Shown one piece after another: positions 7,937-50,644 of a DNA stretch of 64,000 bases. The notes under the pieces were generated by a model. The model saw only the letters and a list, made by a program, of their open reading frames with translations, was not told the origin of the DNA and ran no database searches. Positions within the stretch are counted from its first letter, which is position 1. Each line of letters starts with the position of its first letter. Source of the stretch: a virus; the IMG/VR virus record IMGVR_UViG_3300041809_000571, positions 51,841-115,840 of that record, one strand, 5' to 3'. The position numbers and the translations under genes were made by a program.

Positions 7937-8224
7937 ATGGGAAAGAATATCGAAATGTTAAATCCGGTGGTCTGCCTGCATTGCGGGGCAGTCTATGACC
8001 TATGTGCTACGGAGCCAGTTGCCCGGCTCACTGATTGTGACGTATTCAAAACACCATGCTGCAACCGCACTGCCGACACCCGTAGATGGAAGGGCCTGCC
8101 GGATTACCGGGACTTGCGGCAGGATGACTTCATGCCTATGGACATTATGGGTAACATACGTCATATCCGCATCATCGACCCGGAGGAAACTCGGGCGGCT
8201 ATCAGGGCCAAGGAGGTTGTATGA
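7937..8224 (+). CDS. zinc-finger-like hypothetical protein
   Basis: AGGAG RBS; CLHCG...CC pattern. Confidence 0.45.
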   Translation: MGKNIEMLNPVVCLHCGAVYDLCATEPVARLTDCDVFKTPCCNRTADTRRWKGLPDYRDLRQDDFMPMDIMGNIRHIRIIDPEETRAAIRAKEVV

Positions 8225-8493
8225 GCACCGGAACATTGACCTGCACTGTGGGATGTAACAACGTCCAAATCAACAAACGGGGCGATGACTGCTTTGGAGC
8301 GCCCAACACCATTTACGCCCGAGTCATCAGCCGGGACGGCAATAATGTCTACCTTGAAGAGGCGGATGTTGCTAAGATTCAAGAACTTATGGGGGTTTTG
8401 AAGGACGTTACCTCCTATAGTCCGACCGGCACACCCGAGGATAAAAAGGCGTGGGCAAAGAAACGCAGCACATTTTCCTCCACTGCCGCCTGA
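8221..8493 (+). CDS. hypothetical protein
   Basis: 90-aa ORF overlapping upstream stop by 4 nt. Confidence 0.4.
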   Translation: MSTGTLTCTVGCNNVQINKRGDDCFGAPNTIYARVISRDGNNVYLEEADVAKIQELMGVLKDVTSYSPTGTPEDKKAWAKKRSTFSSTAA

Positions 8494-8496
8494 CCT

Positions 8497-8507
8497 CGTG
8501 GTATACT
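8497..8507 (+). promoter_or_regulatory. extended -10 promoter CGTGGTATACT
   Basis: Identical 11-mer to 5271; followed by GAGGAGA RBS and ATG 8524. Confidence 0.45.
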
Positions 8508-8523
8508 GTTACTGAGGAGACCT

Positions 8524-9645
8524 ATGGAACTCGAAAAGACATCGCACAGTGAGCAGTACATGGATTACTCCGGGGGTAAGGAAAATGCCCCCACGCTGAC
8601 CGTTATGGTCGGCCCGGCTGGCTCGGGCAAGTCCACCCACGCCCGCAGTCTTGTCAATTGGGCAGCGGGAGCGACCGTCCGGGTAAACCGGGACACCATC
8701 CGTGCCATGCTCTACTGTGATTCCCCTTGGAACCACTCGAAGGAAGATGTGGTCCGCAAGTATGAGGAAGAGGGCATCCGTATGTTCCTCGCCATGGGAC
8801 TCAACGTCATCGTGGATGACACCAACTGCGTGTCCCGTACCCGGCAAAAGCTGGAAGAGATTGCCCGTGGCGCTCGGGTAAAGTTCTGCCTGCACGTCAT
8901 GAACGTGGACAAGGAAGAGTGTAAGCGGCGGAACGCCCTACGCACCGGCAAAGAATGCGTGCCCGAGGAAGCCATCGACCAACAGTTCAAGCGGCTGCGG
9001 GAAACAACCGTCCGCCCGGCTGGCTACGGTCTGGATGAGACCAATCGGGCAGTGGACGACTGGAATGAGCTTATCGCCGCTGGTATGGGGCGGAGCGAGT
9101 TCCGGGAGCGCCTCCCCGGCGCACCGTGGGTGTTCTGCGACGTTGACGGAACCCTCGCAGAGAACTTAGGGGAACGCAATCAGTTTGACGAAAGCAAGGT
9201 TCTTTTGGACGCTTGCCGGGAGCCGGTAGCGGCATGGGTCCGGGCGCTTTATCCGACCCACAACATCGCTATCGTCAGCGGTCGGCACGACACCTGCTGC
9301 AACGATACCTGTGACTGGCTTGAAATGTACAAGGTTCCTTTTGACTTGATTCTGATGCGTCCGGCGACGAGTTATGTCTCCGACCACATTGTCAAGCAGA
9401 ACATCTTAGATGCCTTGCTCAAAGTCATCGACAAGGGTCGCATCGCTTTCTCCATTGATGACCGCCCGAAGGTGGTCAATCAGGTGTGGAGGAATGCTAA
9501 AATCAAGGTCTATCCGGTCGGCGGCATGGTCGCCGCACCCGGCGAGCAGGCTACGGCGCACACCGCCTCCTGCACCTTTGACCTTGCCAATGTCAAGAAG
9601 GGTTTCCGTCGCTGCCCGTCTTGCGGGGCACTGGAGGATTTCTGA
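8524..9645 (+). CDS. pnk: polynucleotide 5'-kinase / 3'-phosphatase (T4 Pnk-like)
   Basis: N-terminal P-loop GPAGSGKST; C-terminal HAD phosphatase VFCDVDGTLA plus downstream SGR and DD motifs; domain order as T4 PseT. Confidence 0.75.
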   Translation: MELEKTSHSEQYMDYSGGKENAPTLTVMVGPAGSGKSTHARSLVNWAAGATVRVNRDTIRAMLYCDSPWNHSKEDVVRKYEEEGIRMFLAMGLNVIVDDTNCVSRTRQKLEEIARGARVKFCLHVMNVDKEECKRRNALRTGKECVPEEAIDQQFKRLRETTVRPAGYGLDETNRAVDDWNELIAAGMGRSEFRERLPGAPWVFCDVDGTLAENLGERNQFDESKVLLDACREPVAAWVRALYPTHNIAIVSGRHDTCCNDTCDWLEMYKVPFDLILMRPATSYVSDHIVKQNILDALLKVIDKGRIAFSIDDRPKVVNQVWRNAKIKVYPVGGMVAAPGEQATAHTASCTFDLANVKKGFRRCPSCGALEDF

Positions 9646-10034
9646 TGAGCCTCAATCATATTTCAATGTCACAGGCTTTGGGCGTCTGGTCGGAACTGGA
9701 AGCAGCCTATTACGGCAAGAACGGTTTCGGCAGGGATACGGCGGAAATTTACGCCTATCGCTTGCAGGAGTTCTGCCCCACCGCCGCTTACGCTTCTGGT
9801 AGTCCCTCATCTTCCATAGGGGTGGAAGCGCAGAGAGAAGCCGCCACGAGGGCCGGGAGAGCCTTACACGAGCTTATCCGACTCTTTCAGGCACATCACA
9901 ACTGCCGGGTGGTCGTGATGGATTACCGGGAGGATGGTAACGGGGAACACCCGGATATCCTTCTGGAGGGATTTGACCACCGGGTCAGCATCAAAGTCAT
10001 GCGGGACGAAAAACCACTGGAGATGAAGTCATGA
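9645..10034 (+). CDS. hypothetical protein
   Basis: ATG overlaps pnk stop; 129 aa. Confidence 0.4.
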   Translation: MSLNHISMSQALGVWSELEAAYYGKNGFGRDTAEIYAYRLQEFCPTAAYASGSPSSSIGVEAQREAATRAGRALHELIRLFQAHHNCRVVVMDYREDGNGEHPDILLEGFDHRVSIKVMRDEKPLEMKS

Positions 10035-11302
10035 AGCTGGAAAAGCTGCTGAATATTGAGAAGCTGAACGAACAGGTAAGGGATGGCTACATCTCTGTCC
10101 GGGCACACCCCAAGCTGCCCCTGCGCATCTACAACTACTCCAGCCAATGCACCTTCGAGAACAAGTGGTCCTTGGAGTCGTGCATCTGCCGGGGCCTCAT
10201 CGTGGACTCCAATGACAACGTTGTGTCTCGTCCCATCGCCAAGTTCTTCAACTTGGGACAGACCGGACCCCTGCTGGTCAGGGATTGGTTCCTCCGGGAT
10301 GAAAGGGGAGAGAACAAGGGTGTCGTCAAGGACCAGACCATTGACCCGGCGTACCTTCTCGAATGTGCCCGGCTGTTTAAGAATCCCATTACCATCACCC
10401 GCAAGTTAGACGGGTGGGCGGGAATCTCGTGGCACTATGAGGGCATCTACGGAGTTGCCAGCCGGGGTTCTTTTGATTCACCGGGGGCGCAGTATGCCAC
10501 GGAGAAGGTGCAGAAGTTCGTCAAGTACGGGGCGTTCGCCGACTTTCTCCCCGAGGATACCACCCTGTTCTTCGAGATTATCTCCAAGGTCACCAAGGTG
10601 GTGGTCCCCTACAACTTCGAGGGGCTGGTGCTTATCGCCGCCATTGCCAACGAGACCGGGGAGGAATTGGAATATCCCGAGCTTGAGGCTTTCCACAAGC
10701 AGTTGAACAGCTATGCCAAGGACCGGGACTGGTGCCGGTTGGTGCCGAAGTTTGACATGTCGGTGGAAGAGTGCATGGCGGACAAAGACATGACGGAGGA
10801 GGGCTATGTCACCGCCGTCCACCGGCCCCATCTGCCGCCTGTCCGGGCGAAAATCAAGCTGGCAGAGTACTGCCGTCTGCACCGCATTGTGACTGGTGTA
10901 ACACCGCAGAAAATCTGGAATGAGCTTTCCGACCCCATGTCACCGTGGATTTCCCACAACTCCAAGAAGGATTGGACCACGGGTGAAATCAAGGTGGACA
11001 TGTCCGTCCCCAAGGAATTCGGGGAGTGGGTCTACCAGTGGCAGGTGAAGATAACCGGCGTTTTCCACGAGAAGTTGGTTCGAGCCGTGGAGGCGGAGAG
11101 CCATCTGACAAAACTGGCAACCGACTCGCCTGCTGAAAGGAAGGCACAGGTGGAGTGGCTCCGGGCAAACTTTGCTGATGTTTCCAAGGCGGCAATGTTG
11201 CTGCACCAAGGCAAGATTGTGGACGCCTACAACGAACTGTGGATTCAGGTCCGTCCTTTTGGTCGGGAAGAGTATTACTACCAAGACGGAAAAGGAGAGT
11301 GA
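10031..11302 (+). CDS. ATP-dependent RNA ligase (covalent nucleotidyltransferase superfamily)
   Basis: Motif I RKLDGW (KxDG) plus downstream ligase-like segments; adjacent to Pnk as in phage tRNA-repair modules. Confidence 0.6.
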   Translation: MKLEKLLNIEKLNEQVRDGYISVRAHPKLPLRIYNYSSQCTFENKWSLESCICRGLIVDSNDNVVSRPIAKFFNLGQTGPLLVRDWFLRDERGENKGVVKDQTIDPAYLLECARLFKNPITITRKLDGWAGISWHYEGIYGVASRGSFDSPGAQYATEKVQKFVKYGAFADFLPEDTTLFFEIISKVTKVVVPYNFEGLVLIAAIANETGEELEYPELEAFHKQLNSYAKDRDWCRLVPKFDMSVEECMADKDMTEEGYVTAVHRPHLPPVRAKIKLAEYCRLHRIVTGVTPQKIWNELSDPMSPWISHNSKKDWTTGEIKVDMSVPKEFGEWVYQWQVKITGVFHEKLVRAVEAESHLTKLATDSPAERKAQVEWLRANFADVSKAAMLLHQGKIVDAYNELWIQVRPFGREEYYYQDGKGE

Positions 11303-11303
11303 C

Positions 11304-11921
11304 ATGAACGGCATCAACATCGGAGTAGTGGTTTTCCTCTTTATCCTCAATTTCGCAATCTCGTGGTTCAATGCATGGGTGGTCGGTAGAACGTGGCTGG
11401 AGTCCAAGGCCGCTGGTGGGTTTACTCACTTTGTGACATGGTGTGGAGCCATTATGTCGGCCTGCGGATTCACTTGGTGCTACAGCATTGTTCTGGCTAT
11501 TGCCTCCACGCACATTCCCTATAAGGGGCATATGCTGCTCACCACCGCACAAGCCGGGGGTGTCGTGGAACTGGCCTACCTCGCCGTCATTCTGCCGTGC
11601 ATCGGCTCGGGCATCGGCATCACTATATCAAGCTGGCAGAACTACAGGCGGGACCGCAGCCTCTTGAGTGGTGGTATAATGGGATACAACACCTTCGCCG
11701 AAATATACAATATCTACGAGGCCAGCCGGGCGGTGCCGATGATTTTCAAAGACCTCGGCAGGTTGTTCAAGGGGGACAATGACCGGAACAAGTGGGTCAT
11801 CATCCTCGCTGCCGCTGCCATCTTCGGAGGGGTATTGACAACCTTTGCCATTGTTAAGGCGTCTGCTCGTGCGAAGGCATATCAGGTTCAGTACGAACTG
11901 AATTCCGTCAAGAGGGGTTGA
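11304..11921 (+). CDS. integral membrane protein
   Basis: AAAGGAGAG RBS; 205 aa with 5-6 hydrophobic helices. Confidence 0.5.
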   Translation: MNGINIGVVVFLFILNFAISWFNAWVVGRTWLESKAAGGFTHFVTWCGAIMSACGFTWCYSIVLAIASTHIPYKGHMLLTTAQAGGVVELAYLAVILPCIGSGIGITISSWQNYRRDRSLLSGGIMGYNTFAEIYNIYEASRAVPMIFKDLGRLFKGDNDRNKWVIILAAAAIFGGVLTTFAIVKASARAKAYQVQYELNSVKRG

Positions 11922-12218
11922 CATGAACATGTTTATGCGGTTGTTTGCAGTGCTCACGGGCGGAAGGCCTATGCAGCGAATCGGAGATGGCTTTTGGGAT
12001 GCCATCGGTTTGGAGAAGGTGGACATCTACCGGGACCTGTTTGGTAGAGAGTGGCTCGCTACGGGTCCCTGCCGTCTATTCCGGGTATCCCGGCATTAGG
12101 AGGATGGCATGTGTACTCTTTGACCTCAGACAGCGGCGGCGGTCGCCGCCAGCACGGCAATAGGAATGACTTGGTGGAGATATTGGCACTATCGAGCGGT
12201 TCAAGCTTGGAGACGGGT

Positions 12219-12434
12219 ATGTTTAAGGTGGGAGATAAAGCGGAAACCGCAACCAGCCTATCCGGGACGCTGACCGAGTATGATGTAATGTTTGGTAGAT
12301 TTTTTCTCAGATGTCCAGATGGATTCGGATTGTGGGTACACCCCGACAACCTCAGGTTACCGCTCGGGAACAAATGCCCCATAAACGGGACAAATGAGAC
12401 AGATGTTCCCGTTCGGGAACGGAGCAACGTATGA
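12219..12434 (+). CDS. small hypothetical protein
   Basis: 71-aa ORF with GGAGACGGG upstream of ATG; region otherwise ambiguous. Confidence 0.3.
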   Translation: MFKVGDKAETATSLSGTLTEYDVMFGRFFLRCPDGFGLWVHPDNLRLPLGNKCPINGTNETDVPVRERSNV

Positions 12435-12970
12435 AGCAGAGCCGATTCTACATCCATTACATCCTGATTGACAAGGGGGAGGAATCCATCGAGTTTTCCG
12501 ACAAGCTTTGTAAGCTACTCCGAGAGCGCTTTCCTGCGGACACGTTCTTCCAGAAATTCACCCCGGAAGTCATGAACCCCAACCTCCCCGGTACACCCGG
12601 TATGGACCGCACTACCCTGACATGGAAGCCGGTGGAGAATTCTAAGGTTCTGCTCATTGGCATTGGCATTGGCGGCTTGTTCGGTTACCGATTGCAGCTT
12701 GAGAAAGAGTTTGAAGGTGTATCCCTCATCGCCGTCTGTCCGCCGCCCGGCCTTAGCCTTGCCCCCGCAGGGGGTCCAATAGCGGTGCTGTACGGCTCCA
12801 AGGAAGGCGTGTACTCCCTTCCCATTGAGAAATACCATGTGCCGCACACGCAGACCTTTGGCATCCCGTCCCTCCAGCATGGTCCCCAACTGGCGTTCTA
12901 TGCCATCGCCTACTTGGTGGGCAAGTACATGCAGGAAGAGGACTTATTGCCGGAAATGCAGAAATTATGA
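12431..12970 (+). CDS. hypothetical protein
   Basis: 179-aa ORF, overlaps upstream stop. Confidence 0.45.
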   Translation: MKQSRFYIHYILIDKGEESIEFSDKLCKLLRERFPADTFFQKFTPEVMNPNLPGTPGMDRTTLTWKPVENSKVLLIGIGIGGLFGYRLQLEKEFEGVSLIAVCPPPGLSLAPAGGPIAVLYGSKEGVYSLPIEKYHVPHTQTFGIPSLQHGPQLAFYAIAYLVGKYMQEEDLLPEMQKL

Positions 12971-22892: not shown

Positions 22893-23503
22893 TGCTCCTT
22901 AATGGACAACCAAACCTGTGGTTCACCGCCGACTGGCATTTGGGGCACCGGTACTTCACCACCAAAAAGCGACCCTTCTCCAGCGTGGAGGAAATGAACG
23001 AGGCGTACATTACCAACCACAACGCCGTGGTGCGGAAGGGTGACATCGTCTACGTTCTCGGAGACCTCTACCTTCAGATGAAACTGGAGCAGTGCGTGGA
23101 AATCCAGAAGCGGCTCAATGGAAACTTCTACGTTATACAGGGAAACCATGACGGTATTGCCGTTCAGATGATGAAGAAGCATAACTCTTTCGTCTGGATA
23201 CGCCAGCTTGAGGAAATCAAGGTTGGTCAGCCGTGGTTTGATGACACGAACAAGAAGATGATTACGCTCTGTCACTATGCCATGCGCACGTGGAGGAATT
23301 CTTGCTATAACAGCTATCATCTTTATGGGCATTCTCACGGAATGCTCCCTGATGAGCCACACCTTCTCTCCATAGATGTGGGGGTTGATTGCAATAACTT
23401 CTACCCCATCTCTATCGAACAAGTTATACAGAGAATGGAGTCCAAGATGCCCGCTAGGTTGGCCTACTTAGAGAGCTTAAAGAATTCTGGACGGGTGGAA
23501 TAG
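22889..23503 (+). CDS. calcineurin-like metallophosphoesterase
   Basis: TADWHLGH, VLGDLY, GNHD, HSHG motifs. Confidence 0.6.
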   Translation: MMLLNGQPNLWFTADWHLGHRYFTTKKRPFSSVEEMNEAYITNHNAVVRKGDIVYVLGDLYLQMKLEQCVEIQKRLNGNFYVIQGNHDGIAVQMMKKHNSFVWIRQLEEIKVGQPWFDDTNKKMITLCHYAMRTWRNSCYNSYHLYGHSHGMLPDEPHLLSIDVGVDCNNFYPISIEQVIQRMESKMPARLAYLESLKNSGRVE

Positions 23504-24167
23504 ACTTACCCGCTTTCAACCACCTAATTAGTTTAGGACGTGTCATGTTAAGGTCCTTGGCTGCAAGAGAAATAGACCCATAATTTTTTCCGTTTATCGT
23601 TATCGGTATTGACCTTGGGTGGAGGAATCCAGACTTGAATGAGGTAACAGTTGGTTTTCCGTAGAGATGGTGGTTTTTGCCACGGGCATACTTTCGGTTA
23701 CCAATTTTCTTACAAGTTTCTTCAGTGTGGTGTTTCCCGTAGAACGGGTTGTTTTTGCCTGCTATACAAGGCCGTGGTCCACGCAAGTGAGCACGATGCT
23801 CAAGAGATTTAGGAATTCCCTTGAGAACCTCGCCCATATGCTTACGGCGCTCAGCACTGAACGGTGCCCGTGATGTGGGACCACCATCACCACCGGGTGT
23901 TATGTTATATCCATTTTCCCGTGTATGGTTTTCAGCTATCAATGAGATTTCCAGCCTAATAGCTTCAGATTTGTAGGGGGTACATACAATAGGCTCAATC
24001 CTAAAGGCATCTTTGCCATGTTTCCTTATGGCATTAGCCAGTTTGGTGGTTGCCCCACGGTTTGTATACTTTATATGATTCCACCATCGTTCCTTCAAGG
24101 AAAGTTTTGTGTAGCCGATGTACAATTTCCCATTCTCAAGGCAAGTGATTTTGTAAACGGTGAACAT
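23454..24167 (-). CDS. GIY-YIG homing endonuclease
   Basis: N-terminal YKITCLENGKLYIGYT ... R ... E ... NGYNITPGG (GIY-YIG core) followed by basic DNA-binding tail; isolated minus-strand gene. Confidence 0.75.
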   Translation of the reverse strand: MFTVYKITCLENGKLYIGYTKLSLKERWWNHIKYTNRGATTKLANAIRKHGKDAFRIEPIVCTPYKSEAIRLEISLIAENHTRENGYNITPGGDGGPTSRAPFSAERRKHMGEVLKGIPKSLEHRAHLRGPRPCIAGKNNPFYGKHHTEETCKKIGNRKYARGKNHHLYGKPTVTSFKSGFLHPRSIPITINGKNYGSISLAAKDLNMTRPKLIRWLKAGKSIPPVQNSLSSLSRPT

Positions 24168-26381: not shown

Positions 26382-27322
26382 CGGAGCATTTTGCCAAGGT
26401 GGTTGATGCTCTCTTTGAGAGCGAGGAGACCCTCAAGGCAAAGTTCAACGAGTTGTTTCCCGGCTTGGAGTTCGACCGTACTGACCACTGGGGCGGAATC
26501 ATGTACCGGGTCTTCCGGGATTCTTGGCTGGAGGCCGGTCCCGAGGTTAAGGCGGAGCCAACCGGCTATGACCGGAGTGCGGTCCTCAAGAAGCTCACCA
26601 CCCTGCTGGATTACAACCTCTTCACACAGGTGATGCTCAATCTGCAATCCTACCTCGGTATGGCGTATCAAGCTTTGAACGCTGAAAAAGACCTCAAGAC
26701 CATGGAAGAATGGTGGAAGAACAACAAGCGTAGCCCCTTCATGCCGGGGTCGAAAATGGTGAAACTTTCCGCCAACATGACGACGGAGGATGAGAAGTTC
26801 AATCAGGACCTCAGCACCATCCGGTCATTGAAAATCATCGCCAACTTTACCCCCAACCTATCATGGCGGGTCAGCCCCAAGGGCAGCACCCCGGCGCTGG
26901 TAGACAGCAACAACGTTAGCAGCCTTGGTATCGGGGCGGACAGGTATCTTAAGGTGATGCCCGGCCTGCGGGCCTCTTACGTCTTTTGGGAGCCGGGCGG
27001 CGGGCCGACCATGGCAACCATTCCCCCGGCATCTTCCGACCACATTACGTTCCAAGCGGAGGGCATCCCGTACTTGTTCCGTTCCAAGTCGGGCGGAGAA
27101 ATCCTCAATCAAGTTTTGTTCTCCCGCCGTCTGGCCTTCGGCATTTTCTGTGCTCACGATGTGGCGAACGAGACGTGCATCATCGTCCCGAGAATGAGTT
27201 CCATCCTCGTGGTGCATGACGACAACAGTTACAACCTGCGCCATGCCATCGAACCCTATTTGGATGGTGGTGTTATTCAGTTGGCAGAGGGGTCAAGAAG
27301 TGACCCCTCCCCAAAGGCTTAA
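26351..27322 (+). CDS. hypothetical protein
   Basis: 323-aa ORF. Confidence 0.45.
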   Translation: MDMDEIYQKVAEHFAKVVDALFESEETLKAKFNELFPGLEFDRTDHWGGIMYRVFRDSWLEAGPEVKAEPTGYDRSAVLKKLTTLLDYNLFTQVMLNLQSYLGMAYQALNAEKDLKTMEEWWKNNKRSPFMPGSKMVKLSANMTTEDEKFNQDLSTIRSLKIIANFTPNLSWRVSPKGSTPALVDSNNVSSLGIGADRYLKVMPGLRASYVFWEPGGGPTMATIPPASSDHITFQAEGIPYLFRSKSGGEILNQVLFSRRLAFGIFCAHDVANETCIIVPRMSSILVVHDDNSYNLRHAIEPYLDGGVIQLAEGSRSDPSPKA

Positions 27323-41259: not shown

Positions 41260-41512
41260 CACTGCCTTAGTTGTCATCTGTATCATCGCCATAAGCGGAT
41301 TTTTGTTCTTGGGTAGTACCCTCAGTCACCTGCTTAACTATCTTGAAGAGATACACCGGCAGGCGCATGAAACCGAGATGGCAAAACTCGGCCTGACTTA
41401 TAACGACGACCTAGAAAGGTGGGTGCCCTATGGGCAAGGCGAAGAACAGCCTGACAAGCCGAATGAAGGAGAACTACGAACTCCGGTGCCGCCACTGGCT
41501 CCCGAGGCGTAG
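41249..41512 (+). CDS. small membrane protein
   Basis: GGGGGAAG RBS; hydrophobic helix ALVVICIIAISGFLFLGS. Confidence 0.4.
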   Translation: MLSDTALVVICIIAISGFLFLGSTLSHLLNYLEEIHRQAHETEMAKLGLTYNDDLERWVPYGQGEEQPDKPNEGELRTPVPPLAPEA

Positions 41513-42200
41513 TTACGTCCTTATCCGAGTGGACGGCAGAAGCTTCCACACATGGACCAAGGGCCTAAACAAGCCCTATGACGTGGAAATGATGAAGTGC
41601 ATGGACACCGTGGCGTTCAAGCTCTTTGAAGAGATTCCGGGAGCGAAGTTCGGCTATGTCCAGTCGGATGAAGTCAGTCTGCTCATCACGGACTTTGACA
41701 AGATTGGTACCGAGGCGTGGTTCGACAACTGCCAGAACAAGCTGGAGAGCGTCTCCGCCTCCATCGCCACAATGGCTTTCAATCGGGAAGTCATTAGGTA
41801 TGCACGTGCAAATCTTGAAATGGATATCACTAAACTGGGGTCTAAAGCACCCGATGCCACGTTCGACAGCCGGGCGTGGACCATACCGGACTACGTGGAA
41901 GTGGAGAACTACTTCATCGACCGGCAGAAGGATGCCATCCGAAACTCCGTCACTATGCTGGCAAACTACTACGCCAGCCACAAGAGCCTGCTCAAAAAGA
42001 AGGTCAGTGACCGGCACGAGGTCATTCGGGCAGCGGGTGACGACTGGGAAAAACACCCCCTGCGTTTTCGCCGGGGCGCAGCGGTGTACCGAGTCGGAGG
42101 AATCAGTAACGGTGTAGCAATCGACCAAGACACCCCGGAATTCACCAAAGACAGGGGATACCTCAAGCGGCACATCCCCCGGCACTGGGCGGATGATTAG
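41430..42200 (+). CDS. Thg1-like protein (tRNA-His guanylyltransferase family, 3'-5' polymerase)
   Basis: YVLIRVDGRSFHTWTKGL and GYVQSDEVSLLI match Thg1 core motifs (vVRLDGrnFhrF / yGQSDEySFvf); start may be internal. Confidence 0.7.
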   Translation: MGKAKNSLTSRMKENYELRCRHWLPRRSYVLIRVDGRSFHTWTKGLNKPYDVEMMKCMDTVAFKLFEEIPGAKFGYVQSDEVSLLITDFDKIGTEAWFDNCQNKLESVSASIATMAFNREVIRYARANLEMDITKLGSKAPDATFDSRAWTIPDYVEVENYFIDRQKDAIRNSVTMLANYYASHKSLLKKKVSDRHEVIRAAGDDWEKHPLRFRRGAAVYRVGGISNGVAIDQDTPEFTKDRGYLKRHIPRHWADD

Positions 42201-49397: not shown

Positions 49398-49706
49398 GGA
49401 CCCGTACAAGCGTTCAGGGCAGAGGTAGTCCGGCTGGAGAACGAGCTTATGTCAGCGAAGATACGGCTGGCGGAGGCGGAGTTGCGGTGTTGCCATGCGT
49501 GGAGTAAACCGGCGTATGACCCCATCATCCACGAAGCGTACCATATCGCTGGCGACCCGCCCGGCACCATGGGGGTTGACCGGCAGCTTCCCATGGATGT
49601 ACCCCGGCAGGAAATCCCCCGCTGGAAAAGAACTTGTAGCTCCTGCGGGATAACGGAGACAACGCAGCAAATCAGAGAGGATATCAAAAAGGTACCGGTG
49701 TTCTAA
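49398..49706 (+). CDS. hypothetical protein
   Basis: 102-aa ORF. Confidence 0.35.
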   Translation, partial: GPVQAFRAEVVRLENELMSAKIRLAEAELRCCHAWSKPAYDPIIHEAYHIAGDPPGTMGVDRQLPMDVPRQEIPRWKRTCSSCGITETTQQIREDIKKVPVF

Positions 49707-50644
49707 TGGAATTCTACGGAAAGCTCAAACAAGCGCTCGTGGAGATTGGGGAAGTTGACCCTAATAGCCTGATTCTCGCTTTTGCCTCGGGAAGCTGGCA
49801 GCATGGTGCCCGGATGGACGACAAGGCCGACCTTGACGTGTCCGGGGTGTTCGTGGGTCGCCCGGAGGAAGAACTCCAGCTTGACAACGAGAACCCTCGT
49901 AAAATGGGTCATGCGAGTGCTAGCACGGCAGGAGACAAGCGCAAGAACACCAAGGCGGACGTTGACATCAAAGCCTACTCTCTACGCCGCTGGGCGGGTC
50001 TGGCGCTTAAAGGCAACCCTTCGGCACTTTCGTTCCTGTTTGTCCCGGACAGCATCAAGGACATGTCTTTGGAGCCGAAGGCACGTTGGCCATGCCCCTA
50101 TGATGCGCAGCAGTGTGAGTATCCAAGCTGCATAAGCGACCATGAGGGTTACCGGGACAGCACGTGCGTGAGGCGTAACCGGGAGGCGCATACAAACACG
50201 GTGTGGGACACCGTGATTCTGCCCAACACCAATGACTTTCTGTCCGCCCGAGCGGCGAAAGCTTTCATCGGTCTGGCGGATAACCAGTTTCACCGGATGC
50301 TTGGAGAAGGCACGGGTAAACACGGGACCCGGAAAGCCGAGAAGGAAGAATACGGCTACGACCCCAAAGCGGCTATGCACATGATTATAGGCATTCAAGA
50401 GTGCCTTGAGCTTTTGCGGACCGGAAGGATGACTTTCCCCCGCCCGGAAAAGACCCTATTGCTTAACATCCGTACCGGAAAACTTGGTCTAAAAGGTGTA
50501 TTAGACCTATATGGGGTTTTGCGGGATGAAGTGCCCGAGGCGGAGAAGAACACCCCGCTTCCCCCGGAATGTGACCGGGGAAAGGTCAGCAAACTCGTTA
50601 CGGGGGCGATATTGCAGCATTGGAAAGAGAGGAAGTGGCTATGA
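49706..50644 (+). CDS. minimal nucleotidyltransferase (Pol-beta superfamily) protein
   Basis: FASGSWQHGARMDDKADLDV matches GS-x9-13-DxD NTase signature. Confidence 0.5.
   Translation: MEFYGKLKQALVEIGEVDPNSLILAFASGSWQHGARMDDKADLDVSGVFVGRPEEELQLDNENPRKMGHASASTAGDKRKNTKADVDIKAYSLRRWAGLALKGNPSALSFLFVPDSIKDMSLEPKARWPCPYDAQQCEYPSCISDHEGYRDSTCVRRNREAHTNTVWDTVILPNTNDFLSARAAKAFIGLADNQFHRMLGEGTGKHGTRKAEKEEYGYDPKAAMHMIIGIQECLELLRTGRMTFPRPEKTLLLNIRTGKLGLKGVLDLYGVLRDEVPEAEKNTPLPPECDRGKVSKLVTGAILQHWKERKWL

Follow-up and report, generated by a model that had tools for sequence, protein, structure and literature searches.

A polynucleotide kinase/phosphatase (Pnkp) and an Rnl1-family RNA ligase, encoded on one strand with 386 nt between them, probably constitute an RNA “healing and sealing” module of the T4 type, which a huge phage would direct against host tRNA cleavage. 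The pair was analyzed within a 64,000-nucleotide stretch of viral DNA, here called the window. The module is correctly recognized but ordinary, a known and fairly common jumbo-phage counterdefense; the system is of a known kind because jumbo phages were already shown to carry this toolkit (Iyer et al. 2021). The annotation of the two genes is settled, and the T4 tRNA healing-and-sealing pathway would be extended to very large peat/soil-type phages of an uncultured lineage, where it would be set within a broader tRNA-maintenance kit made up of 33 to 37 tRNAs, RlaP and a Thg1-like enzyme. What is understood of phage counterdefense is unchanged, as jumbo-phage RNA repair kits with these components are already on record (PMC7824862). 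The open reading frames (ORFs) begin and end exactly at the outer coordinates, 8524 and 11302, given in a preliminary description of this locus, and comprise the following features:

8524..9645, + strand: Pnkp, bifunctional polynucleotide 5'-kinase/3'-phosphatase (373 aa, T4-type domain order)
8596..9003, + strand: kinase domain of Pnkp, aa 25 to 160 (Pfam AAA_33, E 1e-23)
9130..9519, + strand: HAD-type 3'-phosphatase domain of Pnkp, aa 203 to 332 (Pfam HAD_PNKP, E 3.7e-24)
9559..9624, + strand: zinc-knuckle-like insert H-x3-C ... C-P-x-C-G in Pnkp (H346, C350, C364, C367)
9645..10034, + strand: orf129, a 129-aa ORF between pnkp and rnl, with overlapping codons at both ends
10031..11302, + strand: Rnl1-family ATP-dependent RNA ligase (423 aa; PF09511, phrog_562)
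10187..10858, + strand: nucleotidyltransferase core of the ligase, aa 53 to 276 (motifs I, III, IV and V)
10862..11248, + strand: all-helical C-terminal domain of the ligase, aa 278 to 406 (AF2 model; without an OB fold)

Family membership and active sites of the two enzymes

Pnkp is a single polypeptide with the kinase at the N terminus and the HAD phosphatase at the C terminus. The preliminary description had called it a P-loop kinase joined to a DxDGT phosphatase, and both halves were recovered: the AAA_33 domain carries the P-loop GPAGSGKS (aa 30 to 37) and the HAD_PNKP domain carries the acyl-phosphatase motif DVDGT (aa 206 to 210). The protein matches phrog_505 (“polynucleotide kinase”) with an E value of 2.5e-63. 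Among solved structures in the PDB, the best match is Pnkp1 (4xrp; E 3.3e-26, nearly full length), with T4 Pnkp (1ltq) matched at E 2e-10, and Pnkp aligns end to end with both. Twelve T4 Pnkp residues, which we take to be essential and whose list reportedly goes back to Wang and Shuman in 2002, were located in the alignment. The T4 kinase residues K15, S16, D35, R38 and R126 correspond to K36, S37, D57, R60 and R140 in the window Pnkp, and the T4 phosphatase residues D165, D167, R176, R213, D254, D277 and D278 correspond to D206, D208, R218, R254, D287, D312 and D313. All 12 of the 12 checked residues are invariant in 21/21 aligned sequences.

The second protein is a KxDG nucleotidyltransferase ligase, as had been proposed, with motif I in the form K125-L-D-G (aa 125 to 128) and with motifs III (E182), IV (E257-G258) and V (K274/K276) intact; these four motifs do not vary among 22 aligned sequences, T4 included. 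It matches Pfam PF09511 (RNA_lig_T4_1) with an E value of 5.9e-11 and 43.1 bits, above the gathering score of 28.3, and phrog_562 with an E value of 3.2e-45. Profile searches thus assign the two proteins to AAA_33 plus HAD_PNKP and to Rnl1, and the family matches of both in Pfam, PHROG and the PDB lie far beyond chance. The ligase family profile matches T4 Rnl1 (2c5u) at E 1.8e-24 over T4 residues 48 to 349, in an alignment that runs on into the T4 C-terminal domain. In the alignment of 22 sequences, T4 residues R54, K75, F77, K99, D101 and G102 correspond to R54, K71, F73, K125, D127 and G128 of the window ligase, and K119, E159, E227, G228, K240 and K242 correspond to R145, E182, E257, G258, K274 and K276. 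The Rnl1-specific N-terminal elements (T4 R54, K75, F77 and K119) are therefore kept, with K119 replaced by R145, a conservative change shared by the family, given that Arg occupies this position in 21 of the 22 aligned members. Across Pnkp and ligase together, all 24 T4 positions that were checked are conserved, this K-to-R change being the sole substitution.

The AF2 model of the ligase (pLDDT 86.9) has T4 Rnl1 as its best fold match (E 3.7e-16); the ligase domains of fungal Trl1 come next (E 1e-10 to 1e-8). Its C-terminal domain is modeled as helices at residues 278-287, 292-300, 328-361, 367-380, 385-392 and 396-406, with no beta barrel. The C-terminal domain of T4 Rnl1 is said, from work of the Shuman laboratory, to give tRNA specificity; for the window ligase, such specificity would not be readable from the sequence. 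Against the NCBIfam equivalog model for T4 RnlA (TIGR02308), the ligase scores 30.8 bits, far under the cut-off of 242.25, and is therefore a distant member of the Rnl1 family and not an orthologue of T4 RnlA.

Gene coupling and the contents of the gap

The start codon of orf129 overlaps the Pnkp stop codon (TGATG), its own stop codon overlaps the ligase start (ATGA), and a Shine-Dalgarno-like sequence precedes each start. Given the shared strand and the overlapping stop and start codons, pnkp, orf129 and rnl are probably co-translated. Scans for sigma-70 promoters and intrinsic terminators between 6800 and 13300 yielded nothing exceeding the shuffled expectation, so the operon structure is read from the codon overlaps only. 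The preliminary description had placed Pnkp next to the ligase; the two genes are indeed linked on the same strand, as in T4 and many phages, but they are not directly adjacent, with orf129 lying between them.

Linkage of the two genes is conserved in other phages. In a survey of IMG/VR, Pnkp was found within 8 kb of Rnl1 in 35 of 80 loci, always on the same strand. The other 45/80 Rnl1 loci lacked a Pnkp inside 8 kb; thus, the ligase family is not always partnered by a linked Pnkp. Fourteen cases in which the longest contigs in the Pnkp and Rnl1 match tables coincide in length also indicate co-occurrence. In related huge-phage contigs (140 to 431 kb), whose ligases are 37 to 69% identical to the window ligase, Pnkp and Rnl1 share a strand, with Pnkp 0.9 to 3.3 kb upstream. 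The gap between pnkp and rnl in relatives holds homing endonucleases, a CCA-adding enzyme, RlaP or a second RNA ligase; this variable slot is a place to seek new RNA-repair or antidefense accessory genes. A megablast search of positions 8000 to 12000 against GenBank phages returned no match, and the best GenBank phage protein match to the ligase, from Streptomyces BE-cluster phages, is 28% identical.

Proposed repair pathway and alternative readings

In the proposed pathway, a host ribonuclease would cut a host- or phage-encoded tRNA in the anticodon loop, leaving a 2',3'-cyclic phosphate and a 5'-OH. The HAD phosphatase of Pnkp, with D206 as the nucleophile, would take off the 3' or cyclic phosphate, and the P-loop kinase (K36/S37, D57, R60, R140) would phosphorylate the 5'-OH end. 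The Rnl1-family ligase would then self-adenylylate on K125, pass AMP to the 5'-phosphate and reseal the break. Enzymatic activity, tRNA substrates and a counterdefense purpose are suggested by T4 biology and by comparative work on jumbo phages; on the same analogy, the preliminary description may well be right that tRNAs are the substrates and host anticodon nucleases the target. To counter host attack on tRNA, jumbo phages bring together Rnl1/Rnl2, PKN-HAD kinase-phosphatases, RlaP, Thg1, a CCA-adding enzyme and tRNAs (PMC7824862).

The heavy tRNA investment attributed to this genome was confirmed: ARAGORN predicted 37 tRNA genes in the window, and 33 reached the gathering score of Rfam. The window has two tRNA arrays, and two further RNA-repair genes are present at a distance from the pair:

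28884..30397, + strand: tRNA array 1, with Tyr, Leu x7, Ser x3 and one odd ARAGORN call (ARAGORN, Rfam)
41430..42200, + strand: Thg1-like protein, unlinked to the pair (Pfam Thg1, E 3e-26)
49706..50644, + strand: RlaP-family Pol-beta nucleotidyltransferase, unlinked to the pair (Pfam PF10127 RlaP, E 5.7e-12)
56372..63517, + strand: tRNA array 2, with His, Arg, Asn, Lys x4, Phe, Met, Pro, Gln, Trp and Arg (ARAGORN, Rfam)

Thg1-like enzymes are 3'-5' polymerases that mend tRNA 5' ends, and the window protein matches a Thg1-like structure (PDB 4kgk) over its full length at E 4.5e-41. The idea that it is needed for G-1 of the phage tRNA-His was rejected: G-1, C73 and CCA are all genome-encoded. 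The RlaP family is RNA-ligase-associated (PMC7824862, PMC12776372).

These genes could also be taken to mean that the pair performs general RNA maintenance, i.e., repair or maturation of the phage's own tRNA set or mending of incidental damage, instead of counterdefense. The 33 to 37 tRNA genes, accompanied by a Thg1-like protein and an RlaP end-repair enzyme, and the CCA-adding enzyme located between Pnkp and Rnl in relatives fit this reading, and tRNA housekeeping suits the gene pattern as well as defense evasion does. Maintenance is nevertheless an improbable explanation. When the entire window was scanned with Rfam at the gathering score, tRNAs alone were detected, without introns or Y-RNA-like RNAs; these are plain tRNAs, none of which the scans show to require a protein ligase to mature. 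Furthermore, the sole role that experiments have established for a phage Pnkp and Rnl1 pair is that in T4, where it counters the anticodon nuclease PrrC (T4 annotation; PMC7824862).

A second alternative is that pnkp, orf129 and rnl encode a three-component system in which orf129 would act as a specificity, scaffolding or antinuclease partner, comparable to Hen1. Identical orf129 and Pnkp proteins are encoded on a 364-kb metagenome contig. The orf129 family comprises 31 homologues with the conserved motif WSELExAYYGKNGFGGDTAEIYAYRL, and three members found in other loci have small phage genes as neighbors, neither Pnkp nor Rnl being encoded within 5 kb of them. Conversely, orf129 was not found in any of the related Pnkp-Rnl loci examined, where the contents of the gap vary. 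It has no match in Pfam, PHROG, NCBIfam or PADLOC, and a fold search with its AF2 model (pLDDT 82.6) gave nothing significant. A role as a conserved third component was rejected on account of its absence from related Pnkp-Rnl loci and of family members without nearby repair genes, and the three-component system is, overall, quite improbable. As relatives of orf129 are unaccompanied by Pnkp or Rnl in three other loci, it is probably cargo, an unrelated accessory gene in the variable slot and not a repair component.

It has also to be considered that the ligase might be mainly a virion assembly factor for tail fiber attachment, with Pnkp serving DNA ends and the linkage being historical. Tail fiber attachment is the second activity of T4 gp63, in line with the label of phrog_562 (“RNA ligase and tail fiber protein attachment catalyst”), and T4 Pnkp acts on DNA ends too, as established biochemically. 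However, the invariance of the ligase catalytic residues across the family points to selection on ligase chemistry, the genes within and around the pair in relatives are RNA-repair genes and not tail genes, and no tail fiber genes were seen near the pair in the window, all of which makes this reading highly improbable. That the second gene encodes a DNA ligase has next to no probability and was rejected, in agreement with the RNA ligase identity first proposed: DNA ligases do appear low in the fold-match list, but through the shared nucleotidyltransferase core only (∼200 residues, TM 0.23 to 0.30, E 1e-6 to 1e-4, against E 3.7e-16 for T4 Rnl1), everything after motif V is modeled as helical without an OB fold, and no OB-fold or DNA-binding domain was found by Pfam.

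Known systems, the C-terminal insert and mosaicism

The healing-and-sealing pair is T4-like, as initially described, in the architecture of Pnkp, in the top fold match of the ligase and in its linkage. T4 pseT shares the two-domain Pnkp architecture and order, and T4 Rnl1 (rnlA, gp63) belongs to the same ligase family, has a helical C-terminal domain like that of the window ligase and shares the checked catalytic residues. The T4 pair is likewise encoded on one strand at a short distance with small genes between, in the order rnlA, four genes, pseT, so that rnlA comes first in T4, whereas pnkp comes first in the window. Identity to T4 is ∼30% for Pnkp and ∼20% for the ligase. Compared with T4, the window Pnkp has an N-terminal extension of ∼20 aa and the zinc-knuckle-like C-terminal insert of ∼23 aa, and the ligase has an insert of ∼30 aa at residues 76 to 105 and is 49 aa longer.

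Among other phages, a close counterpart in gene content is the jumbo-phage toolkit (Iyer, Anantharaman, Krishnan, Burroughs, Aravind 2021; PMC7824862), in which phages of >200 kb carry the same combination as the window: an Rnl1-type ligase, PKN-HAD, RlaP, Thg1 and many tRNAs. The window lineage differs in being uncultured and without a close GenBank phage relative. The best annotated ligase match, in Streptomyces BE-cluster phages, covers 96% of the length. For example, Streptomyces phage Evy encodes an RNA ligase (gp187), two small ORFs and a polynucleotide kinase (gp190) on one strand among tRNA genes; unlike the window, these phages have the ligase ahead of the kinase, a Pnkp of T4 length and genomes of ∼133 kb. 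In the bacterial Pnkp1-Rnl-Hen1 system, Pnkp1 is likewise a T4 Pnkp homologue co-translated with a ligase. In contrast, the window ligase is of the Rnl1 type, with no match to the Rnl chain of 4xrp/4xru, and no Hen1-type methyltransferase was detected among the ∼70 ORFs scanned, all of them larger ORFs inside the window. Finally, the LIG domain of fungal and plant Trl1, which acts in tRNA end joining, shares the Rnl1-clade fold with the window ligase. Trl1 needs a 2'-phosphate and is a fusion of ligase, kinase and a 2H cyclic phosphodiesterase, whereas the healing enzyme of the window is a separate HAD-type Pnkp.

Two minor novelties, of which no mention was found in the consulted passages of PMC7824862, are the C-terminal insert of Pnkp and sub-gene mosaicism. 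The H/C3 insert is conserved and widespread in environmental Pnkp proteins and is unannotated, no Pfam domain having been found over it in a scan of Pnkp. It lies ahead of a conserved C-terminal EDF (the C terminus of T4 Pnkp reads ...ASGDF) and is present in 96/120 of the closest Pnkp cluster representatives; it is missing in short (280 to 320 aa) Pnkp relatives and in T4 Pnkp. The spacing of its residues suggests that it binds metal.

Mosaicism is seen in comparison with a sister phage (locus L004). The kinase half of Pnkp is 96 to 99% identical in nucleotide sequence to that of the sister phage, and identity falls to 44 to 76% in the phosphatase half. Similarly, ligase nucleotides 10391 to 10840 are 89 to 97% identical, against 47 to 73% in the 5' and 3' portions of the ligase gene. 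It is conceivable, albeit unlikely, that the pnkp-rnl bracket is a recombination hot spot, an “RNA-repair island,” in the clade of 140- to 430-kb environmental phages. If so, co-circulating phages would exchange parts and yet keep almost the same catalytic cores. The swapped cargo would be homing endonucleases, the CCA-adding enzyme, RlaP, the extra ligase or orf129, and the swapped parts likely to recognize substrates would be the zinc-knuckle phosphatase domain and the N-terminal segment and C-terminal domain of the ligase. Exchange of this kind would be the trace left by an arms race against a variety of tRNA nucleases in hosts. In that case, orf129 could be a new factor that confers specificity or opposes nucleases, and the zinc knuckle could be a new element through which Pnkp binds RNA or a partner. 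Domain-level mosaicism may mark the enzyme parts that are under conflict-driven turnover.

Gene layout and protein families at the Pnkp-ligase locus

By comparison with T4, the two proteins predicted at this locus carry complete sets of catalytic residues and belong to families whose T4 members heal and seal broken tRNA. The boundaries of both open reading frames were confirmed exactly as claimed in the preliminary description, and the motifs that it had read by eye are present: GPAGSGKS (aa 30-37) and DVDGT (aa 206-210) in the polynucleotide kinase/phosphatase (Pnkp), and KLDG (aa 125-128) in the ligase (Rnl). The two genes had also been described as next to each other; they do lie on one strand with coupled codons, but they are separated by a 129-aa ORF (orf129). 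The features of the locus are as follows.

8524-9645, + strand: Pnkp, 373 aa
9559-9624, + strand: zinc-knuckle-like insert in Pnkp, aa 346-367 (H346, C350, C364, C367), before the C-terminal EDF
9645-10034: orf129, 129 aa, between pnkp and rnl
10031-11302, + strand: RNA ligase, 423 aa
11304-11921, + strand: fourth gene, 205 aa, with a hydrophobic N-terminal stretch (phrog_37671, E = 2.3e-35)

The A of the orf129 ATG is shared with the TGA stop codon of Pnkp, the orf129 stop overlaps the ligase ATG in the sequence ATGA, and a GGAG-type Shine-Dalgarno sequence precedes all three starts. The fourth gene begins one base past the ligase stop; in two related phage loci (L008 and L009), a homologue of its product is also found downstream of the ligase, in the same position.

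The reading of the first protein as a P-loop kinase joined to a DxDGT phosphatase is borne out by Pfam (AAA_33, aa 25-160, E = 1e-23; HAD_PNKP, aa 203-332, E = 3.7e-24) and by PHROGs, where phrog_505, “polynucleotide kinase,” matches almost the full length (E = 2.5e-63). Among solved structures, the closest are Capnocytophaga Pnkp1 (4xrp, E = 3.3e-26), which aligns end to end, and T4 Pnkp (1ltq, E = 2e-10), which matches in both domains. The protein was aligned with T4 pseT (from NC_000866) and 19 relatives, and the positions mapped are those that Wang and Shuman reportedly found essential in T4 Pnkp in 2002. We take these to be K15, S16, D35, R38, and R126 in the kinase domain and D165, D167, R176, R213, D254, D277, and D278 in the phosphatase domain. 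They correspond to K36, S37, D57, R60, and R140 and to D206, D208, R218, R254, D287, D312, and D313, respectively, in the window protein, and all of these columns are invariant. The first protein is a T4-type Pnkp, with 30% pairwise identity to the T4 enzyme. The C-terminal (E/D)(D/E)F is common to T4 Pnkp, which ends in ASGDF, and the clade of the window protein, in which it is directly preceded by an insert of ∼23 aa, H-x3-C-x10-14-C-P-x-C-G. This insert was found in 96 of the 120 closest environmental Pnkp cluster representatives and is missing in shorter, T4-length relatives. Pfam places no domain over it; the residue spacing suggests a putative zinc knuckle.

The second protein, described earlier as a KxDG nucleotidyltransferase RNA ligase, was assigned to the Rnl1 family by Pfam (RNA_lig_T4_1, 43.1 bits against a gathering score of 28.3), PHROGs (phrog_562, E = 3.2e-45), a family profile, and an AlphaFold2 model. 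In a single-sequence search of the PDB, T4 Rnl1 was the sole match, and a weak one (E = 3e-4); the profile of 31 family members matched T4 Rnl1 residues 48-349 with an E value of 1.8e-24. Twelve T4 positions were mapped: R54, K75, F77, K99, D101, G102, K119, E159, E227, G228, K240, and K242 correspond to R54, K71, F73, K125, D127, G128, R145, E182, E257, G258, K274, and K276. The sole change is K119 to R, and Arg is present at this position in 21 of the 22 aligned sequences. The model, built from the family alignment, is of high confidence (mean pLDDT, 86.9) and contains only helices past motif V. Foldseek ranked T4 Rnl1 first among PDB structures (E = 3.7e-16), followed by fungal Trl1 ligase domains (1e-10 to 1e-8) and then by archaeal Rnl3 and Rnl5-type ligases. 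The preliminary description had set a DNA ligase with an OB fold against this assignment; that alternative was rejected because the C terminus is all helical and DNA ligases match only the ∼200 core residues (E = 1e-6 to 1e-4). The ligase is a distant member of the Rnl1 family, with ∼20% identity to T4 Rnl1 and a score of 30.8 bits against the NCBIfam T4 RnlA equivalog, for which the cut-off is 242 bits.

Linkage of the pair and the variable slot between the genes

The Pnkp/Rnl1 linkage is conserved across many phages. Pnkp is encoded upstream of Rnl1, on one strand, in five independent related lineages (L004, L006, L008, L009, and L010, with ligases 69%, 48%, 55%, 45%, and 37% identical to that of the window, respectively), with gaps of 1.2 to 3.3 kb. 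At a more distant locus, L011 (ligase 36% identical), Pnkp was not found within 6 kb. For a wider survey, IMG/VR was scanned with the ligase family alignment, and the 80 resulting loci were searched by local tblastn for a T4-type Pnkp within 8 kb. Such a gene was detected at 35 of the 80 loci, in all 35 on the ligase strand, upstream in 22 and downstream in 13; among the 12 loci with ligases nearest to that of the window, it is upstream in 11. Fourteen longest-contig values shared between the homologue tables of the two families provide an indirect indication of co-occurrence. The T4 order, also on one strand, is rnlA-alc-pseT.3-pseT.2-pseT.1-pseT; in Streptomyces phage Evy, the RNA ligase is followed by two small ORFs and a polynucleotide kinase, with tRNA genes around them.

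The genes in the gap vary by locus. They encode HNH-like and GIY-YIG homing-endonuclease-like proteins in L004 and L006, a CCA-adding enzyme at two loci, an RlaP nucleotidyltransferase at one, a second PF09414 RNA ligase at one, and also DUF6915. Therefore, the two genes flank a variable slot, in which further RNA-repair genes or selfish endonucleases are often found. Both endonuclease-like genes in the L004 gap encode HNH-type motifs.

In the window, the slot is occupied by orf129. Its 31 homologues, with identity down to 33%, share a striking segment, WSELExAYYGKNGFGGDTAEIYAYRL, and a C-terminal FDHRxHVKV, conservation that marks a genuine family. It is missing from every related Pnkp-Rnl locus, and the three family members inspected at other sites lie among small phage genes, with neither Pnkp nor ligase encoded within 5 kb. 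We read orf129 as cargo of the variable slot; that it assists the repair enzymes is a less likely reading, which conservation does not favor.

The window comes from a huge uncultured phage without DNA-level similarity to any GenBank phage; the best protein matches of the ligase are from Streptomyces BE-cluster phages (26-28% identity). Identical Pnkp and orf129 sequences were found on a 364-kb contig in a large protein collection, and ligase relatives of 45-69% identity are on contigs of 140-435 kb; a 3-kb contig from JGI sample 3300017988 shares 99.2% identity with window positions 9939-12964. Other genes in the window include those for a SNF2 helicase, ThyX, radical-SAM enzymes, and homing endonucleases, along with two tRNA arrays.

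Mosaicism relative to a sister phage

Comparison with L004, a sister phage that shares 92-97% identity with the window in the flanks, delimits one further feature.

9065-12100: region that is mosaic relative to L004 on a sub-gene scale

In pnkp, identity is 96-99% over the kinase half, to ∼9064, and falls to 44-76% over the phosphatase half. Likewise, the ligase core (nt 10391-10840, aa 121-270) retains 89-97% identity, compared with 47-73% over the first 360 nt and the last 460 nt of the gene, and BLASTN detected no similarity to L004 between pnkp and rnl or in the gene downstream. Segment-wise BLAST of the ligase confirms, for these aligned segments, that the nearest relatives differ: the core is 96.7% identical to one relative, P0002, and the C-terminal domain is nearest to another, P0003, at 62%, with P0002 at just 53%. 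Because the divergence is so abrupt, the alignments imply recombination rather than point mutation. As speculation, the driver might be the homing endonucleases of the gap or selection on the parts that recognize substrate. A GIY-YIG + NUMOD3 homing-endonuclease gene is located at 23454-24167 (- strand), and at least one HNH endonuclease is encoded elsewhere in the window, which fits mosaicism that is actively driven by endonucleases in this lineage.

tRNA genes and the proposed repair of tRNA

The heavy tRNA investment ascribed to this genome is real: ARAGORN identified 37 tRNAs, and Rfam detected 33 at gathering score. The arrays and two further genes are as follows.

28884-30397, + strand: tRNA array 1 (ARAGORN, Rfam)
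41430-42200, + strand: bacterial-type Thg1-like protein (Pfam Thg1, E = 3e-26; PDB 4kgk, E = 4.5e-41)
49706-50644, + strand: RlaP-family (PF10127) Pol-beta nucleotidyltransferase (E = 5.7e-12)
56372-63517, + strand: tRNA array 2 (ARAGORN, Rfam)

The arrays are sorted by type, with the long-variable-arm tRNAs (Tyr, Leu x7, Ser x3) in one block, and many isoacceptors are duplicated (Lys UUU x2, Lys CUU x2, Met x3, Pro x4-5, Trp x2). Two ARAGORN calls, at 29824-29894 and 58939-59012, have 2-nt “anticodons” and were not confirmed by Rfam. For most of the genes, the ARAGORN end is 3 nt past the Rfam end, which suggests that CCA is genome encoded in most. The Lys(UUU), Arg, Tyr, His, Asn, and Gln tRNAs of the window are classical targets of anticodon nucleases.

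Thg1-like proteins are 3'-5' polymerases that repair tRNA 5' ends. Since G-1 (at 56371), C73, and CCA of the phage tRNA-His (56372-56445) are already genome encoded, 5'-end repair is a more plausible role for this enzyme than G-1 addition. The RlaP family is named for its association with RNA ligases. The RlaP gene of the window is ∼38 kb away from the ligase; in L010, an RlaP gene lies 1.4 kb downstream of the ligase, with a NADAR gene beside it.

In the proposed pathway, the chemistry of which is borrowed from the established T4 pathway, a host ribotoxin would cleave a tRNA in the anticodon loop, and the broken ends would carry a 2',3'-cyclic phosphate and a 5'-OH. Pnkp would then remove the 3' phosphate with its HAD domain and add a 5' phosphate with its kinase domain, and the ligase would seal the break via K125-AMP and an AppRNA intermediate. 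Both proteins are very likely active end-healing and end-sealing enzymes; the mechanism as a whole is probable by analogy with T4, and we favor, with somewhat more reserve, the countering of host tRNA nucleases as the main purpose of the pair.

The preliminary observation is correct and well supported, and the pair is of a kind already described. A ligase and PNK pair is annotated in cultured Streptomyces phages, and Iyer et al. 2021 (PMC7824862) describe jumbo phages that respond to attacks of the host on tRNA with a combination of many tRNAs, Rnl1/Rnl2 ligases, RlaP, CCA-adding enzyme, sporadic Thg1, and PKN-HAD kinase-phosphatases, the last being “generally congruent with” the ligases. The zinc-knuckle insert, the variable slot, and the domain-level mosaicism are noteworthy and leave the overall picture unchanged.

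Directly after tRNA array 1, on the minus strand, an 813-aa protein (30761-33202) resembles the eukaryotic major vault protein (MVP) in Pfam (MVP_shoulder, E = 1.4e-21; Vault_3, E = 1.5e-10) and matches rat and human MVP residues ∼456-738 (E = 1.6e-15); a vault-like shell protein is unusual in a huge phage. A papain-family cysteine protease (27319-28260, - strand; Peptidase_C1, E = 6.8e-11) and a protein with a weak match, below gathering score, to ART-PolyVal, an ADP-ribosyltransferase of polyvalent proteins (34045-35016, + strand; E = 1.8e-4), are possible host-manipulation proteins.
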